NCBI GenBank assembly: GCA_963668025.2
Contig: CAXXTH010000010.1
Span: 96,001-160,000 of the forward strand
DNA length: 64,000 bases
Direction of reading: 5' to 3'
DNA from: Candidatus Hydrogenedentota bacterium
GTDB lineage: Bacteria; Hydrogenedentota; Hydrogenedentia; Hydrogenedentales; SLHB01
This document shows positions 35,688 to 43,969 of this stretch, one piece after another. Made by a program: the position numbers and the translations under genes. How positions within the stretch are numbered: the stretch's first letter is position 1; every line of letters begins with the position of its first letter. The notes under the pieces were generated by a model that had not been told where the DNA came from, did no database searches, and saw only the letters and a program-made list of their open reading frames with translations.

Positions 35688-36632
35688 TCATCCTTTGGCC
35701 ATCCGGAGCACTTCGGCGGCCATTTCCCAGGATTTTATGGGGTCATGGCACGTTTCCGTAGTGCCAATCTGGCCTTTCCAGGCCCACACATACAGGGCAT
35801 CGGGCTTTTCCCGCACCAGGATGCGGCCTTGGTCCAGAATGCGCTGCTCGCGCCCGGCGCGGACTCCCCAGCATTGCAGCCATTCGTGGTGTATCTTGCC
35901 CGTTTCATGGCATAAGGCCGCCAAGTCGCGTATCATGGGGGTCATTTCCTCGACATCGATATCCTCGTTCACCCAGTAGATATCCGTACCCAAATTGTCT
36001 AAAAACTCGATTTGGGACGCTTTCGCCCAGATATCGCGGTCGCAGGGCATGACGCAGCATTGCGTTTCCGTATGGGGAAAACTGGTTTTGCAGAATTCGG
36101 CGATCTCGCGGACATACTCGATCACGCAGCGATGGCGGAATTCGGCGGCTTGGACTTCCTCCGCCGCCCCCAAATCGCCGCCGTACCATTCCATGTAGCG
36201 GGCGCGGCAGGAAGTGCAATAACATTCCCATAACGGGGTGGGCTCATCGACGAAATAGCCCTCGAAACCGAGTTCCGTGGCGGTATGGAGCATCTCTTTA
36301 ATGCGCGCCACGCACAGGCGGTTCACGTAACACCCCGCGGAGCGGTGGGCTCCATCGCGCCCGCGCTGGAATCCCTCGGGATGTTCGAGTAGAAACTGGC
36401 TCGAACGGCCTCCGCCGAACAAGTTGAGAGCGCCCCAAAAAATGGCCAAAGGCCTCAGGCCCATGTCTTTAGCTATTCGCGGCGTGAATTGTATTTTCCC
36501 CGTGAAATGTACGAAATCATTTTCCTGGGCGGATACGAGCACGTCGTCGCATCCCAATTGTTTCATTTCCGCAAGGTCTGTTTTGATGTGGACTGGATTA
36601 TGGTGGCCCATGTAAGAGACGCCCGTACGCAT
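35688..36632 (-). CDS. Hypothetical TIM-barrel protein, glycoside hydrolase-like
   Basis: GYFVDEP followed by CYCTSC, reminiscent of GH42-like barrels; GAAGGGGG RBS-like sequence before MRTG. Confidence 0.6.
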   Translation of the reverse strand: MRTGVSYMGHHNPVHIKTDLAEMKQLGCDDVLVSAQENDFVHFTGKIQFTPRIAKDMGLRPLAIFWGALNLFGGGRSSQFLLEHPEGFQRGRDGAHRSAGCYVNRLCVARIKEMLHTATELGFEGYFVDEPTPLWECYCTSCRARYMEWYGGDLGAAEEVQAAEFRHRCVIEYVREIAEFCKTSFPHTETQCCVMPCDRDIWAKASQIEFLDNLGTDIYWVNEDIDVEEMTPMIRDLAALCHETGKIHHEWLQCWGVRAGREQRILDQGRILVREKPDALYVWAWKGQIGTTETCHDPIKSWEMAAEVLRMAKG

Positions 36633-36932
36633 CTGAATACCCCCTTCTGCCTGCTGCTGGACACAGCGTATTTCATTTGCTTGGAAAACCGCCATGATAC
36701 TCCATGTCGAATGTGAATTCGAATGAAGTTTTTGCTCTGGGCAGCCGTTATATGGGTAGCGCGGATAAGGTGCTGTAGGGTGCTAATATTGCTAAAAACT
36801 TTTAATATTCTGGATTCGCCCTCATTAGTCGGCGATGTGCATAACTTGCGGATTGAACGGCGCGTTCGGGTTGTTATGTAGATGGCGGCGGCGTACGGAT
36901 GACGCCCGGAAACGGCTTGAAAGCTCATATAT

Positions 36933-36961
36933 TAGACTCACGTGCGTTTGGATGTTATACT
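36933..36961 (+). promoter_or_regulatory. Sigma70-type promoter of mcsA
   Basis: TAGACT-17 bp-TATACT with TG extension, followed by AAGGAGGT RBS. Confidence 0.6.
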
Positions 36962-36982
36962 ATATGCAAGGAGGTATGCGGC

Positions 36983-37648
36983 ATGATTTGCCAGAAATGC
37001 CATAAGAATTTGGCTACAATGCGGTACGCGGAGGTCATCAAAGGCCGTGTGTCTGAGCTGATGATCTGTGCGTCCTGCTATGCCTCCATGTCTCAAGATG
37101 AAACGGCGGGCTTTGAGATCGCCGGCACGGCTCCTTCGCCGCGAATGAAAACGCTCCGGCGTGCCACACGAAATGCGGACCAGGAAAAAACAAAACTGGT
37201 GTGCGGTACGTGCCAGACAGCGGGGAGCGAGGTGCTGGAGACGCATCGCGCCGGATGCAGCGCTTGTTATGAGGAGTTTCGGGAGATACTCGCGCCTGTG
37301 CTCGAAGAGCTCCATGGGGCCGCCCGCCATCGGGGCCGGACAGCCCATATCGACACGGTGCGCGCACGCCTTCGGGCGGATTTGCTCATGCGGCGCTCGC
37401 TGTTGCGTAGCGCCCTGCAAAGCGAACAATACGAGGAGGCGGCCTGCCTTCGTGACGCCATACGGGATATTGAAAACAGCTTGAACCAGCCCGAGGCCGA
37501 AACGGAACGGGTAAAATGCGCCTTGTGTGGAGCGGCGATTGACGAACCCGGCAAGATGTTCTGCCCAGCTTGCCAGACTTCTCTGGTGAAAAACGTTTTT
37601 AAGACGGCTTCGCCGTTGGGGCACGCCCGGCAAAGCGGAAAGGACTGA
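36983..37648 (+). CDS. mcsA: McsA-like protein (4 CxxC, UVR domain, extra C-terminal zinc ribbon)
   Basis: CQKC, CASC, CGTC, GCSACY; EQYEEAACLRDAIR UVR motif; extra CALC..FCPAC. Confidence 0.85.
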   Translation: MICQKCHKNLATMRYAEVIKGRVSELMICASCYASMSQDETAGFEIAGTAPSPRMKTLRRATRNADQEKTKLVCGTCQTAGSEVLETHRAGCSACYEEFREILAPVLEELHGAARHRGRTAHIDTVRARLRADLLMRRSLLRSALQSEQYEEAACLRDAIRDIENSLNQPEAETERVKCALCGAAIDEPGKMFCPACQTSLVKNVFKTASPLGHARQSGKD

Positions 37649-37654
37649 CGCATT

Positions 37655-38698
37655 ATGCACGAAGTCCTACTAGATCAGCCAGTGGAATGGCTTGCGGGCG
37701 GCGGTCCCGATTCCGATGTGGCCCTGCATTCACATGGCGCGCTTGCGCGTAATGTGGCGGGCTATCCGTTTGTCCAAAAATGTACGGAATTCGAGCTACG
37801 CGCCATTGAAGAGCGGATCCTTGGCATACTCGAGAGCGAAGATACTTCCGCCCGTGAGCGCTACTATTCCTTTGACGGTTTGAGCAGCCTTGCCCAGCGC
37901 TGCTTGGTCGAGCGCGGCCTTGCGAGCGAAGCGCTTATTGAAGCGGCGGGACCCCGGGGCGTATTGGTAGCCGAAAATCAAAGCGCCAGCATTTCCATCA
38001 ATGGCGGCGAGCACATCGTGTTGCAGGCTTTAACGCCTGGTTTGCAGCCCCAAGAGGTTTGGCAGCAGCTTGGCGCGATGGAATCCGTGTTGTTAAATCC
38101 GCTGGATGCGGCGTTTGATGAAACCTATGGTTTTTTAACTGCTTCGCTCGAACTGCTGGGCACGGGTCTGTCCTTGGAGGTGCTGCTTCACTTGCCCGCC
38201 TTGGCGATGACTGGGCGGCTGATGAAAGTGGAGCGGGAGGCGCGCAGCATGCGCCAGCGCCTCGAGGGCGCTTTTGGCCCAGTGAGTGAAGGCCCGGGAG
38301 ATTTGTATTATCTCAAAAACGCGGCGACGCTCGGTGTTTCCGAGGAAGAGATCGTGTTTCATCTGCGCCATGCCGCCGCGGCGATCATTGGCCAGGAGAG
38401 GCTTGCGCGCCGCACACTGCTGGATGAAGGGCGCACTAGCCTCGAGGACCGCGTAGGCCGGGCGCTCGGATTGGCGCGCGGTGCGCGGCTGCTCGAGTTT
38501 GAAGAAGCGCTGGCCATTCTCTCGTCGCTCAGATTGGGCGCGGTGGCGGGCCTGCTCGAGCATATCGAGCCTAAAATGCTCAACGAAATGCTCTTGCTGT
38601 CACATCCCGCCCATATTCAGATGAAGCTCGGCGGCGAAGTGGATGCGCTCCGGCAAAGCATCGAGCGCGCCGAGTTGTTTCGCAGCCGCCTGGCGTAA
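37655..38698 (+). CDS. mcsB: McsB-like phosphagen-kinase-fold protein with degenerate active site
   Basis: Scaffold motifs GPDSD, LARN, GFLT, GTG, HLPAL, TLG.SE, EDRV.R, RLG retained; synteny with mcsA and clpC; catalytic motifs altered. Confidence 0.85.
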   Translation: MHEVLLDQPVEWLAGGGPDSDVALHSHGALARNVAGYPFVQKCTEFELRAIEERILGILESEDTSARERYYSFDGLSSLAQRCLVERGLASEALIEAAGPRGVLVAENQSASISINGGEHIVLQALTPGLQPQEVWQQLGAMESVLLNPLDAAFDETYGFLTASLELLGTGLSLEVLLHLPALAMTGRLMKVEREARSMRQRLEGAFGPVSEGPGDLYYLKNAATLGVSEEEIVFHLRHAAAAIIGQERLARRTLLDEGRTSLEDRVGRALGLARGARLLEFEEALAILSSLRLGAVAGLLEHIEPKMLNEMLLLSHPAHIQMKLGGEVDALRQSIERAELFRSRLA

Positions 38699-38824
38699 GG
38701 CTTGTCTGCCTGGCGCTGGCGATTGCACTTTTTTTGTTAACCGCATATGGACATAAATTAACATAGCGCGGCATAGCCGCAACCAAAGAGCCGGATGTTG
38801 AGACCACTAAATACACTAAAATTT

Positions 38825-38846
38825 GTAGGGTGGGGCTTGCCCCACC
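38825..38846 (+). repeat. GTAG-type REP
   Basis: GTAGGGTGGGGCTTGCCCCACC, identical to the copies at 50961 and 51002. Confidence 0.85.
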
Positions 38847-39179
38847 GCTCAAGGAATACGCCTATATAGTCCAAACATAACTATTTGATATGCAAGGTTT
38901 TATCAGGAAAATCTTCGCTAGAAAACGACATCCTGAAAGATAGTAGTGCGAATGTAGAATAGGCTTGGTGGGTTTTCCCCGTCTTTCAGCAATAACGCTA
39001 TGGTGGGCTGAGCCTTATCATAAGATTCTCAAGAATCGGTATGATCCGTGGATTATGATATTCTGTCATCTCGTGAAAATGGATGCCCTATGATACGAAG
39101 GCGTTGTAGCAGGCGCGGTGTAATGCAACTCGTGAAAGCTTCTAGACGCCTTCTGATGTAAGAAAGGAACCACACAGCC

Positions 39180-41648
39180 ATGTGGGAACGATTTACCGAA
39201 CGCGCGAAACACGTGGTCAACGCCGCACGCGAGGAAGCTATCCGTTTGGGCAGCGAATACGTGCGCACGGAGCATATCCTGCTCGGGCTGTGCCATGAGC
39301 CGGAAGGCATCGCGGCGCGTGCGCTCGATAGCTTGGGCGTGGATATTAGCGGGCTTTCCATGGAGATCGAGAGCCAGGTCACCCGTGGCAATGCCGTGAT
39401 CTCGAGCGAAGAGATCAATTTTACGCCCCGCGCTAAAAAAGTGCTCGAACTCGCCGTCGAGGAGGCGCGCAATCTCAACCATAATTATATTGGCACCGAG
39501 CATATTCTCCTTGGCTTGATAAAAGAAGGGGAAGGCATCGCGGCTAAAGTGTTGCAAGAGATGAATATAGGCCTTGACCGGCTGCAGAATGAAGTGCTCC
39601 GGCTGTTGGGCGAACAGGCCAAGCCGGGTGCGGGAGCAAGCGCGCAAGCCTCCACTAGCAAGAAATCATCGACTCCCGCCCTTGATACCTTCGGCCGGGA
39701 TCTTACCGTGTTGGCCCAGGAAGGCAAATTAGATCCCGTCATCGGCCGCGAATCGGAGATCGAACGGGTAATCCAAGTGCTGTCCCGGCGCACCAAGAAT
39801 AATCCCGTGTTGATTGGCGAGGCGGGCGTCGGCAAAACCGCCATCGTCGAGGGATTGGCCCAAGCCATCGTCAACGGCGACGTGCCGGATCTGCTTTTGG
39901 GCAAGCGCGTCTTAACACTTGACCTTGCCGGTGTCGTGGCGGGCACGAAATATCGCGGGCAATTTGAAGAACGCCTCAAATCCGTCATGAAAGAAATCCG
40001 CCGCGCGGATAACGTCATTCTTTTCATTGATGAATTGCATACCATCGTGGGCGCAGGAGCGGCGGAAGGCGCCGTGGACGCGGCCAACATGCTCAAGCCA
40101 TCGCTGGCGCGGGGCGAACTGCAATGCATCGGCGCCACCACCATGGACGAGTACCGCAAGCAGATCGAGAAAGATGCGGCGCTTGCCCGCCGCTTCCAGA
40201 CCATCATCGTAGAAGCGCCAAGTGTGGACCAGACTATCGAGATTATCAAAGGTTTGCGGGACAAGTATGAGGCGCACCACCGGGTGAAGTTCTCCGATGG
40301 AGCCGTGGTCGCGGCGGCGAAACTCTCGAACCAATACATCACCGACCGCTTCCTTCCCGATAAGGCCGTGGATGTGATTGACGAGGCGGGAAGCCGCGCC
40401 CGCCTTCAAATCACCACGCGCCCGTCCGCCCTCAAGGAAATCGAGCGCGAGATCGAGGGCATCACTAAAGAAAAAGAAGTGGCCATTCGAAACCAGGAAT
40501 ATGAAAAAGCCGCTTCGTTGCGCGACCGCGAGCGCCACCTTATCTCGGAATTGGAAGAGAAGCGCCGGGAATGGGAGCGCAAGCGCGATTCATCCGAAAC
40601 CATTGTCAACGAAGAGGATATCGCATATATCGTGTCTAAGTGGACCGGCGTGCCTCTCACGAAGATCGAAGAAAAAGAATCCGAGCGGCTGCTCCGGATG
40701 CGCGACGAATTGCATCATTCGATCATTGGGCAGGAAAAAGCTATTGATGCGGTCACGCGGGCCATCCAGCGTTCGCGGGCGGGCTTGCGCAATGCGCGGC
40801 GTCCGGTGGGTTCATTTCTATTCCTCGGCCCCACGGGCGTAGGCAAGACCTTGCTGGCGCGTACGCTGGCGTCGTTTCTTTTCGGTAATGAAGAAGCGTT
40901 GATCACCATTGATATGTCCGAATACATGGAGAAATTCGCCGTGTCGCGCCTGGCGGGCGCGCCTCCAGGATATGTGGGCTACAACGAAGGCGGCCAGCTC
41001 ACCGAGCAGGTGCGCCGCAGGCCCTATTCGGTGGTGCTGTTCGACGAGATCGAGAAAGCCCATCCGGATGTGTTCAATGTGTTGTTGCAGGTGCTCGAGG
41101 ATGGGCATATGACCGACGCCACGGGGCGCAAAGTGGATTTCCGCAACGCCGTCATCGTCATGACAAGTAACGTGGGAGCGAGGCGCATCGGGCGCAATAT
41201 CACATTGGGCTTCCAGAAGGATTCCATGGAGGATCAATATGCCTCTATGAGCGACCGCGTGATGGAGGAAGTCAAGAAAGTATTCAATCCGGAATTTCTG
41301 AACCGGGTGGACGAAGTGGTGGTTTTCCATCATCTGACCCACGAGGATCTCCTTGCCATTGTTGACATTCATGTGGGCGAAGTGATAGAACGAGTCAAAG
41401 ATAAGGGGCTACTTCTATCACTGTCTGCCGTTGCAAAAGAGTTTATTATTCAAAAAGGCAGCGATGAGCAGTATGGTGCGCGGCCGTTGCGGCGAGCGGT
41501 GCAGCAGTATGTCGAAGACCCCTTATCCGAGCTGCTGCTAAAAGGGGCCTTCGTATCTGGAATGGAAATAGAGGTTCGTCCTTCGGAGGACGAGGAGAGG
41601 TTATTCTTCACTCCAGTCGTGGCCGTTACGGAAGGTGTGCCCACTTGA
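39180..41648 (+). CDS. clpC: ATP-dependent Clp protease ATPase ClpC
   Basis: Two Clp-N repeats (TEHILLGL), [11 protein letters not shown] middle domain, [11 protein letters not shown] ClpP-docking loop, GARPLRR. Confidence 0.95.
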
Positions 41649-43969
41649 AAAAGCTCGTTGTCAGCATGATGATGGCGGCCTGTGTCCTCTTGGGGGGAAT
41701 CCCGGCGGCAAGCCAGGATTATACAGGAAAAAATGTGAAGGAAGTCCAATTGGTTGGGCTCGAACGTGTGAACGACCAAGTGGTGCGTTCCAAACTCGAG
41801 GTCCAGCCGGGGCAGCCTTTCAATTCGCGTATGGTGTCCCGTGATATCCGGCGCTTGTATGAGCTCGGGTATTTCTCCAATATCGTCGCCGACGCCAGCT
41901 TGTCCGGTGACGATGTGGTGGTCACATATACCGTCGAAGAAAAGCGCTCCATCGACGAAGTGAAGATCACCGGCAACCGCAAGGTGAAAGAGCGGGCGAT
42001 CCGGGGCGTGCTGACATGGCGCGAGGGCGATTCTTTCGCTTCGGAAGCCTATGATGATGAACGCGATGCAATCCTCAAATTGTATCAAAGCAAAGGCTTC
42101 CCGAGTGCCAGCGTCGATATTATCGTCGAAGAAATCGGCGCATCGCGCGTGCGCATCACCTATGTCATCAATGAGGGGAAAAAGGCCCGAGTGAAGCAGA
42201 TCACTTTTGTGGGCAATGAAACCCTTTCCGAGCATAAACTCAGGAAAGCCATGAAGACCAAACACGCATGGTGGTTCCTTGGCGGCAAGTATGATCCAGA
42301 TGTGTTTGAAGAAGATCTCGGACGCATAACGGACGAGTATGGCAATTACGGCCACCTCGAAGCCGATGTTGAAAATACCGATCTGGCGTTCTCGGAAGAT
42401 GGCAAGCGCGTCAATGTCACCATCTATGTGAAAGAAGGCCCGCAATACCACGTGGATACGCTCGATGTGGCCGGCAATGTGGTATACGACACCGACGAAA
42501 TCATCGATAAGATGAAGGTCATACCAGGCGAAGTCCATAATAAGAGCCAAGTCGAGAAAGACGCGGAGACGATCAATAGCGGTTATGAGGACAGCGGATA
42601 TGTGTATGCGGGTGTGACGCCGCAAGTGACGCTGGACCGTGAAAATAAAACCACGCATATTGTCCACCGGGTGCGCGAGGGAGACCTCAAGTATATCCGG
42701 GAGATCAAAATCACCGGTAATTCCATTACCCGCGATGATGTGATCCGCCGGGAGGTGTTGTCCTTCCCTGGAGAACGGTTTGATGGCGGCCTATTGCGGG
42801 CCAGCCAATCCCGCCTTGAAGATACGGAATGGTTCGAGACCGTCCGCTTTACGCTGGAAAACCTGGATGACACGGAAGACGGTCGTTTCTCGAATCTGCT
42901 GGTGGATGTCGAAGAAGGCAAAACGGGATACTTCAATTTCGGTGGCGGCTACAGCTCGGACGAGGGGTTGGGCGGCTTCACGGAGTTAACCTTTAACAAT
43001 TTTGACATCTCGAATTGGCCGAAGTTTTCGGGCGGCGGCGAACAGTTGCGCCTTAAACTTAACATCAGCGGCAAGCGCAACCAATACAATATCAGCTATA
43101 CGAACCCCGAATTTATGGGTTATCCGCTTATCTTCGGCGTGGATCTCTTTGATGAACGCTACGAATATGACGATGTCGGCCGCTATACGGAAGACACAAG
43201 CGGCGCGCAGATTCGTTTCGCCAAATTACTGTCGCCCTTTGTGACCGCGCGCACGATGCTGCGGTATTCCGACACCTCGATTTCGGATTTGCCCTGGTAT
43301 GCGGGCATCACCTATCCCCGCGAATATTGGGACGGCCGCGAAGGCAGCACGACCATTAGCTCCATCTGGGGCATCACGCGCAACACCGTCGATACCCAGA
43401 AAGACACCACCAGTGGTTCGCGGCATGATCTGCAATTCGAGTTCGCTGGCATAGGCGGCGACAATAACTTCTACAAGCTCGAACATGATTCGACGTGGTA
43501 TTGGCCGCTGGACGACAACCGCAAATGGATCCTCTCCTTCCGCACCCGCGAGGGCTGGGTGGATGAATACGGCAGTTCAGATTACGTCCCCCTGCAAGAT
43601 CGTTTCTTCGCGGGCGGAACGAACACCATCCGCGGCTACGACAGCCGTGATGTCGGCCCGAAAAAGACCGGTTTGTGGGGGCTTGGCGAGACTGTCGCCA
43701 TCGGTGGCGAGCTGCGGCTCCTGGAAAGCCTCGAAGTCAAATACCGCTTGAACAAACTCCTTCGCTTGTATGGTTTCGTGGATTCCGGCGGCGTCTGGGA
43801 AACGGCCAGCGATCTTGACTTTGGCGATATGCGGTACAGCGCGGGCATTGGCCTTGGATTTGATATCCCCCGCATGGGCCCCATCCGCGTCGATTATGGA
43901 TTCCCGCTGAATGCGGATGAAGACCAGGGTAACGGGAAGCTCCACTTGCAGAGCGGCTTCCGCTTCTAG
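41645..43969 (+). CDS. bamA: Outer membrane protein assembly factor BamA
   Basis: Signal peptide, five POTRA-like repeats, IRGY motif, C-terminal Phe; TTG start overlaps the clpC stop. Confidence 0.93.
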   Translation: MKKLVVSMMMAACVLLGGIPAASQDYTGKNVKEVQLVGLERVNDQVVRSKLEVQPGQPFNSRMVSRDIRRLYELGYFSNIVADASLSGDDVVVTYTVEEKRSIDEVKITGNRKVKERAIRGVLTWREGDSFASEAYDDERDAILKLYQSKGFPSASVDIIVEEIGASRVRITYVINEGKKARVKQITFVGNETLSEHKLRKAMKTKHAWWFLGGKYDPDVFEEDLGRITDEYGNYGHLEADVENTDLAFSEDGKRVNVTIYVKEGPQYHVDTLDVAGNVVYDTDEIIDKMKVIPGEVHNKSQVEKDAETINSGYEDSGYVYAGVTPQVTLDRENKTTHIVHRVREGDLKYIREIKITGNSITRDDVIRREVLSFPGERFDGGLLRASQSRLEDTEWFETVRFTLENLDDTEDGRFSNLLVDVEEGKTGYFNFGGGYSSDEGLGGFTELTFNNFDISNWPKFSGGGEQLRLKLNISGKRNQYNISYTNPEFMGYPLIFGVDLFDERYEYDDVGRYTEDTSGAQIRFAKLLSPFVTARTMLRYSDTSISDLPWYAGITYPREYWDGREGSTTISSIWGITRNTVDTQKDTTSGSRHDLQFEFAGIGGDNNFYKLEHDSTWYWPLDDNRKWILSFRTREGWVDEYGSSDYVPLQDRFFAGGTNTIRGYDSRDVGPKKTGLWGLGETVAIGGELRLLESLEVKYRLNKLLRLYGFVDSGGVWETASDLDFGDMRYSAGIGLGFDIPRMGPIRVDYGFPLNADEDQGNGKLHLQSGFRF

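Follow-up and report, generated by a model that had tools for sequence, protein, structure and literature searches.

The mcsA and clpC genes of a bacterium assigned to Candidatus Hydrogenedentota flank a gene for a full-length McsB homolog, here called McsB*, that is very probably not a protein-arginine kinase and that is maintained by selection. The locus lies in a 64,000-nucleotide stretch of DNA (assembly GCA_963668025.2, contig CAXXTH010000010.1, positions 96,001 to 160,000), referred to below as the window. McsB is the founding protein-arginine kinase, and phospho-arginine (pArg) has been described as a degradation tag for ClpCP in Gram-positive bacteria. Since mcsB* is still under strong selection between mcsA and clpC, its product is probably a nonenzymatic helper of ClpC, and the whole model that we favor, in which McsB* is a pseudoenzyme that acts with McsA on ClpC, seems reasonably likely to be right. 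An entire diderm order keeps McsA, McsB, and ClpC with both the kinase and the pArg receptor site dismantled, which suggests a selectable function that is free of phosphorylation.

Homology of McsB* and its replaced residues

The mcsB* reading frame runs from an ATG at 37655, 7 nucleotides past the mcsA stop codon, to a stop codon at 38698 and contains no internal stop or frameshift. A sequence-only reading of this stretch had described an intact, full-length mcsB open reading frame (ORF) of this extent, and that description stands for a product of 347 residues. The homology it proposed also withstood alignment to profile hidden Markov models and to McsB structures. The product matches Pfam PF00217 over residues 51 to 249 (E = 2.5e-35; 122 bits against a cutoff of 22.4), and it aligns with five NCBIfam equivalogs named “protein arginine kinase” along almost the whole of each model, every score lying far below the cutoff (254 bits for NF002194, cutoff 385; 235 bits for NF053707, cutoff 500; the three others likewise under). 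In phmmer searches, residues 7 to 346 align to the McsB chains of 6fh1, 8wtb, and 6tv6 with E values of about 4e-50 to 8e-50 and a single short gap in query and in target, each located ahead of query residue 107. Arginine kinase and creatine kinase chains rank below these, at E values of 1e-14 or weaker, and the Atlas clusters that match McsB* belong to the McsB family. The C-terminal dimerization domain is present, as the structure-based alignments extend to residue 346; precomputed annotations assign PF27454 (McsB_C) to McsB* (P0001) and to all listed relatives, and our own Pfam scan gave no PF27454 match.

Four conserved motifs are replaced in McsB*: SSRIRLARN reads HSHGALARN, NEEDHIR reads NGGEHIV, CPTNVGTGLR reads SLELLGTGLS, and RGxYGEGS reads EGAFGPVS. 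Each of these replacements had been pointed out in the sequence-only reading, and each was borne out by the phmmer alignment to McsB structures. A further change listed there as a loss, EKHL to ERGL, is not one, because canonical McsB sequences from outside the Bacillota read ERHL, with the same Glu86 and Arg87. In Bacillus subtilis numbering (the 8wtb chain index minus 2, anchored on the translation of the R337A/D338A primer in PMC8370763), the substitutions are R29H, R31A, E120G, E121G, D122E, R125V, C167S, R176S, R207E, and R337Q. The Glu of GEG is replaced by Pro, Ser164 of McsB* (in SLEL) occupies the position of the catalytic Cys167, and R34, N119, and H123 are retained.

Mutants of the B. 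subtilis enzyme indicate what these substitutions are likely to mean. C167 and the NEEDH motif have been named as the catalytic site of McsB (PMC11046695), and C167S is a kinase-inactive allele in B. subtilis (Lilge et al. 2020, PMC7235348). A single R-to-K change at R29, R31, R34, R125, R176, R207, or R337 abolishes the in vitro kinase signal (PMC7235348); McsB* keeps one of these seven essential arginines, R34, and the tally is one to five in members of its family and six or seven in canonical relatives. Extrapolating from these mutants, we strongly infer that McsB* would be inactive as a kinase. The pArg receptor site has been altered as well. In McsB it is formed by S285, R337, D338, and R341 (PMC8370763), and the equivalents in McsB* are F282, Q334, S335, and R338, RDxxRA having become QSxxRA. 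The earlier statement that the C-terminal dimerization domain has been kept is thus right for the domain and wrong for its receptor site, of which only the R341 equivalent remains. McsB* therefore has the marks by which a pseudoenzyme is recognized: homology to an enzyme, loss of the catalytic residues, purifying selection, and a state shared across its clade.

Compared with the McsB proteins of B. subtilis and Geobacillus stearothermophilus (6tv6, 8wtb, and 6fh1), McsB* has the same two-domain layout (end-to-end alignment at E of about 1e-50), the same operon partners, with mcsA upstream and clpC downstream, and the same McsA-coupling residues, but it lacks Cys167, Glu121, six of the seven essential arginines, and three of the four pArg receptor residues. 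A laboratory counterpart is the B. subtilis McsB C167S mutant (Kirstein 2005, as used in PMC7235348), which has Ser at the exact position where McsB* has it and which is reported to keep a partial, kinase-independent adaptor effect (PMC7235348). That mutant carries one change and has an intact pArg receptor site, whereas in McsB* the full catalytic set is gone, and selection has kept the protein in this state throughout its order.

Distribution, selection, and descent of the degenerate family

A word-indexed search returned 138 relatives of McsB*, the best of which is only 51% identical to it; the named records among them are assigned to Candidatus Hydrogenedentes or the Fibrobacteres-Chlorobi-Bacteroidetes (FCB) group. 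Among the best 120 of the 138, about 110 are degenerate and 7 are canonical, the latter including a Thermoguttaceae record. A PF00217 profile search of 135 genomes of the phylum gave a match in 124, and in 80 of the 86 genomes that are at least 90% complete. When the best 30 loci were compared, all 28 from the order of the window lacked the Cys, the NEED glutamates, and RGxYGEG, and 20 additional loci fetched for families f2 to f8 and f10 to f13 were degenerate without exception. In total, all 48 further loci of the order, spanning 12 of its 13 families, have lost the motifs; the catalytic Cys occurs in none of them, and no ortholog in this set retains NEEDH and CPTN. The degenerate state is also seen in fragments from four more genomes. 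G001 and G002, the phylum's only two genomes from outside the order, encode proteins that are canonical at all eight scored positions (SSRVRLARN or STRVRLARN, NEEDH, ACPTNVGTG, and VRGxxGEG).

Ratios of nonsynonymous to synonymous divergence (dN/dS) were calculated by the Nei-Gojobori method (NG86) for the four locus pairs in which dS was under 1. They are 0.070, 0.037, 0.100, and 0.132 for mcsB*, with 0.066 to 0.104 for mcsA and 0.005 to 0.033 for the 5' part of clpC in the same pairs. The window gene and its nearest genome relative (L023; 50% identity) were left out of this comparison, since their dS of 2.7 is saturated. On contigs of related strains (runs X4 and X5), the listed differences, which are the best supported ones and leave 38 further differences outside the listing, are synonymous in 14 of 14 cases in mcsB*, 5 of 5 in mcsA, and 2 of 2 in clpC. 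Low dN/dS among orthologs and synonymous strain differences agree with the sequence-only reading, which had argued for selection rather than decay.

These results also bear on the possibility that mcsB* is a decaying pseudogene or an assembly artifact, which we regard as effectively refuted. Its one point of support is that the degenerate mcsB lies in pieces over different frames in two genomes, G092 (L063; G092:C5:37200-38800) and G132 (L062; G132:C10:110300-112100), where the split represents either real pseudogenization or indel errors in assemblies of about 10 contigs each. Against it, the frame is intact here and in the 48 other loci, dN/dS lies at 0.04 to 0.13, and the listed strain differences are all synonymous. 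Sequencing-run contigs reproduce the window sequence, although the best holders among them may come from the source sample of the window itself.

An exhaustive HMMER search found 4078 McsB homologs at E values up to 1e-3, and eight catalytic positions were scored in 156 sequences (the best 150 of the 4078 after removal of those under 300 residues, together with references). The scores are bimodal: 95 sequences keep seven or eight of the eight residues, and 61 keep five or fewer. In a FastTree phylogeny of these 156 homologs, in which all support values are local ones, the family of the window groups as a single clade with 52 representatives, at a local support of 100 and on a stem of 0.53, and every one of these representatives keeps at most five of the eight. 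Nine degenerate sequences, keeping zero to five, fall outside this clade (P0116, P0223, P0225, P0234, P0243, P0249, P0250, P0257, and P0260). P0257 is placed as sister to the clade with weak support, and the other eight are scattered among canonical sequences, a pattern that fits several independent losses. The canonical or degenerate label needs at least seven changes on the tree, or at least five when strongly supported branches alone are counted, and these changes are most simply read as losses. The two canonical sequences of the phylum are placed, with weak support, among other canonical McsB proteins, and the degenerate clade may have arisen vertically with a burst of change or by replacement.

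Conserved surfaces and the likely partner of McsB*

Conservation was further examined in 133 family members, a group set by inspecting motifs, so that motif counts within it are partly circular. Among them, 65 positions are at least 90% conserved. Where the family has lost residues that are invariant in canonical McsB, the positions are the catalytic ones: Cys167 and Pro168 are kept in no member, the Thr and Asn of CPTN in 1% and 8%, the Glu of GEG in 3%, R207 in 9%, and Glu121 in 25%. The Cys167 position is occupied by S, A, D, E, G, and others, with Ser the commonest (57 of 133), and the R207 position by E, S, Q, or others. A large share of the family, made up of proteins of 375 to 420 residues (P0049, P0073, P0080, P0098, and many others; loci L033 to L046), has a low-conservation insertion of about 20 to 50 residues exactly at the position of the RGxYGEG loop. 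The variable replacements and the insertions at this loop point to relaxed constraint, not to a new active site.

Unexpected activities have come to light in some pseudokinases, and McsB* could in principle still be an enzyme, working with noncanonical residues or on another substrate. Remnants of the active site are invariant or nearly so (R34, E86/R87, N119 and H123 of NEEDH, GTG, and TLGxSExE), and three conserved gains are specific to the family, namely, C43 (120 of 133; Ala in canonical McsB), Q109 (128 of 133; canonical Glu), and A274 (123 of 133; canonical Leu). We nevertheless consider such an activity improbable: the window protein has none of the phosphate-binding arginines, neither catalytic acid, and no catalytic Cys, and the replaced positions are variable rather than fixed, with the loop insertions present in many members.

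Features that couple McsB to McsA have been retained. R-to-K changes at R86, R255, R272, R281, or R341 leave autophosphorylation in place and abolish stimulation by McsA (PMC7235348); among the 133 members, the corresponding arginines are found in 85, 126, 133, 118, and 133, respectively. The McsA-contact residues of McsB, F41, D146, D147, D154, T165, and E233 (PMC11046695), are 89 to 100% conserved in the family. The former pArg pocket has taken on another composition, with F at the S285 position in 69% of members, L at R337 in 83%, S at D338 in 65%, and R at R341 in 100%; the original S285 and R337 survive in 5% and 4%, and Asp does not rank with the commonest residues at the D338 position. 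Of 50 related loci, 49 have mcsA upstream of mcsB (29 of 30 and 20 of 20) and 40 have clpC downstream (26 of 30 and 14 of 20), an order that canonical relatives share.

Gene order and conservation suggest that McsB* may serve as a kinase-dead adaptor of ClpC. In the mechanism that we propose, the catalytic machinery would have been lost in the lineage leading to the order of the window within the Hydrogenedentota, and mcsB* would since have been kept as a single copy, under purifying selection, in the ancestral mcsA-mcsB-clpC arrangement. Its product, as judged from the sequence alignment, would be a folded McsB scaffold from which ATP-phosphate binding and phosphotransfer to arginine have gone. 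McsB* would pair with McsA through its kinase-domain surface and dimerize through its C-terminal domain, and the McsA/McsB* assembly would contact ClpC or ClpCP directly as an adaptor, an activator, or a brake; this direct contact would replace the writing of pArg degrons. Such a mechanism is plausible, since Lilge et al. infer a kinase-independent adaptor function for McsB C167S and a direct, kinase-inhibiting interaction between ClpC and McsB is cited in the same paper (PMC7235348). A structure prediction for the complex of McsB*, McsA, and residues 1 to 150 of ClpC scored 0.00 in two runs in which the controls did not fold, and it speaks neither for nor against binding. The proposed likeness to MecA-type ClpC adaptors lies in nonenzymatic binding, which McsB* is presumed to share, and in control of ClpC activity or substrate choice; MecA has no sequence relationship to McsB*. 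More tentatively, and with some doubt on our part, the mcsA-mcsB*-clpC genes of the order might constitute a pArg-free targeting system in which the pArg pocket has been rebuilt as a conserved hydrophobic patch that reads a different signal, either a degron or ClpC itself. If so, the scaffold or adaptor role, and not kinase chemistry, would be the selected core function of McsB outside the Bacillota.

A natural kinase-dead McsB was not found described in the literature that we searched, which covers few subscription journals. PMC11046695 states that the activity of Gram-negative McsB homologs has never been identified, chlamydial McsAB has been discussed as a presumed active kinase (PMC11708050), and a review of bacterial Ser/Thr pseudokinases (PMC12599244) has McsB in its reference list only. 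The present family would add a pseudokinase family of noneukaryotic type to a field that catalogs bacterial Ser/Thr pseudokinases, and it would offer a natural experiment separating the adaptor role of McsB from its kinase role, a distinction at which only C167S had hinted before. Given the predicted inactivity, the annotation “protein arginine kinase,” which several relatives carry, would be functionally wrong for the clade.

The rest of the genome was examined for other parts of a pArg system. In the window assembly (6.15 Mb in 24 contigs, 93.75% complete), PF00217 matches mcsB* alone, CtsR (PF05848) and MecA (PF05389) have no match, and no clear YwlE was found; two ClpP genes are present. 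The absence of ctsR that the sequence-only reading had noted for the window thus extends to the whole assembly, and the search it had suggested found no second mcsB, no ctsR, and no clear ywlE there. The sole match to the low-molecular-weight phosphatase family (PF01451) is L032 (G000:C17:1394357-1397752), a 172-residue ORF when read from its first ATG, with the P-loop CTGNSCRS. The P-loop is what we take to distinguish YwlE from ArsC. L032 looks like ArsC rather than YwlE, because it sits between an ArsR-like regulator and an S-adenosylmethionine methyltransferase-like gene, an arrangement resembling an ars-type cluster. PF01451 matches twice in each of the two canonical relatives, and among these matches one low-molecular-weight phosphatase P-loop was seen, in G001. 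The host also differs from organisms with the Bacillota-type circuit, which has CtsR and YwlE, in being a diderm, as judged from the bamA homolog that follows clpC.

Several observations weigh against our interpretation. The inactivity of McsB* is extrapolated from mutants of an enzyme that is 33 to 36% identical to it. Some family members keep up to five of the seven essential arginines, and 25% keep the Glu121 equivalent, so that residual or altered activity is possible in parts of the family. The 133-member group was chosen by motif, the order and the tree clade being the groupings independent of that choice. clpC lies outside the fetched flank in 6 of 20 loci (five times in family f3 and once in f4), and its linkage is therefore not universal. 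Finally, the ClpC N-domain motifs FTERA...TEH and FTPRA...TEH, which form the two pArg pockets, are present in the window and invariant in 27 of 27 loci from canonical and degenerate lineages alike, which would also fit the reading of pArg written by an unknown kinase.

This last point relates to a further explanation, in which an active McsB or some other arginine kinase is encoded elsewhere, McsB* serves it as a regulatory partner or decoy, and ClpC still reads pArg. To our knowledge, mcsB is absent from mycobacteria. pArg has been reported there (PMC9604228), so an unknown class of kinase is conceivable. The sequence-only reading had offered a partner of an active McsB encoded elsewhere as one of its two suggestions, and this part of it finds no support: the PF00217 match is unique in the 93.75%-complete genome, and the second PF00217 matches checked in related genomes proved to be pieces of a single gene, broken by an insertion, by a frameshift, or at a contig end, and never a canonical copy. 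The FTxRA/TEH motifs, correctly noted in that reading, do not discriminate, because the same N-domain pockets hold ClpC in its resting state as well, and the regulatory residues of the N-terminal domain are conserved in Mycobacterium tuberculosis ClpC1 (PMC12583610); their retention is accordingly no proof that pArg is read here. Moreover, with its receptor site lost, McsB* could not sense pArg in the known way. On this evidence, a role as regulatory partner or decoy is highly improbable.

The incomplete linkage to clpC bears on the identity of the target. McsA and McsB* might form a conserved nonenzymatic module that acts on something other than ClpC, for example, as a zinc- or redox-sensing regulator, an adaptor for ClpX or another protease, or a holdase, the linkage to clpC being merely inherited. 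The six loci without clpC in the flank come from a set of 20, all of which have mcsA next to mcsB; a role for McsB with ClpX has been raised as speculation by Lilge et al. (PMC7235348), the family-specific Cys43 (120 of 133) lies in a loop that faces McsA, and a spacer of 480 bp bearing a repeat parts mcsB* from clpC in the window. On the other hand, clpC follows directly in 40 of 50 loci and in most families of the order, canonical relatives have the same order, and no other candidate partner is linked. We therefore regard a target other than ClpC as unlikely and retain ClpC as the probable partner of McsA and McsB*.

Neighboring genes and the mcsB*-clpC spacer

The features of the locus are collected in Table 1.

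Table 1. Features of the mcsA-mcsB*-clpC locus and adjoining genes (positions within the window)
Feature	Position	Strand	Description
335-aa ORF directly upstream of mcsA	35688-36695	-	Opposite strand to mcsA; no Pfam match with an E value of 0.01 or lower
Promoter-like site upstream of mcsA	36933-36961	+	TAGACT, 17-nt spacer, TATACT; TG before the second hexamer
mcsA	36983-37648 (ORF 36899-37648)	+	221 aa; two zinc-finger domains, each CxxC...CxxC, RHRG loop, UVR-like coiled coil
mcsB* (kinase-dead McsB homolog, predicted)	37655-38698	+	347 aa; phosphagen-kinase-like domain and McsB C-terminal dimerization domain
clpC	39180-41648	+	822 aa; two Clp_N repeats, AAA1, UVR/M-domain, AAA2, D2-small (Pfam)
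bamA/Omp85 homolog	41645-43969	+	Five POTRA matches; as listed, the ORF starts with TTG and has a 4-nt overlap with the clpC stop

McsA matches NCBIfam NF053706 with an E value of 8.1e-28, under the cutoff of that model. Its likely start is the ATG at 36983, which lies 8 nucleotides after AAGGAGG and agrees with the MLCQKC start of 28 orthologs. At all eight zinc-finger Cys residues, at R157 and D158, and at coiled-coil and further positions, the 29 rows of an McsA alignment carry the same residue; the RHRG loop that follows the second zinc-finger domain of the window protein reads RHRGK in most relatives. The window McsA also has a lineage-specific C-terminal tail of about 45 residues (encoded by 37511-37645) with a third, zinc-ribbon-like motif, CxxC-x11-CxxC, which is missing from all 28 other aligned McsA proteins. 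The promoter-like site upstream of mcsA matches 9 of 12 consensus positions and comes from a consensus scan in which five such sites were found per 2.9 kb, compared with 2.0 expected from shuffled sequences; it points weakly to a promoter there.

ClpC of the window has the tripeptide LGF at the position of the ClpP-docking loop of Clp ATPases, presumably for docking of ClpP.

The spacer between mcsB* and clpC contains a dispersed repeat of about 190 bp (38760-38950), which has 44 matches in its own genome at 77 to 100% identity (40 of 209 candidates scored). At the repeat, the summed depth of contigs peaks at about 66 times the flank level in run X1 and about 40 times in run X3, and many contigs break there. 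The repeat includes a GC-rich hairpin, GGTGGGGC...GCCCCACC, and looks like a miniature inverted-repeat transposable element (MITE) or a repetitive extragenic palindromic (REP) element. At the other end of clpC, the bamA homolog is an unusual neighbor for a clpC operon.

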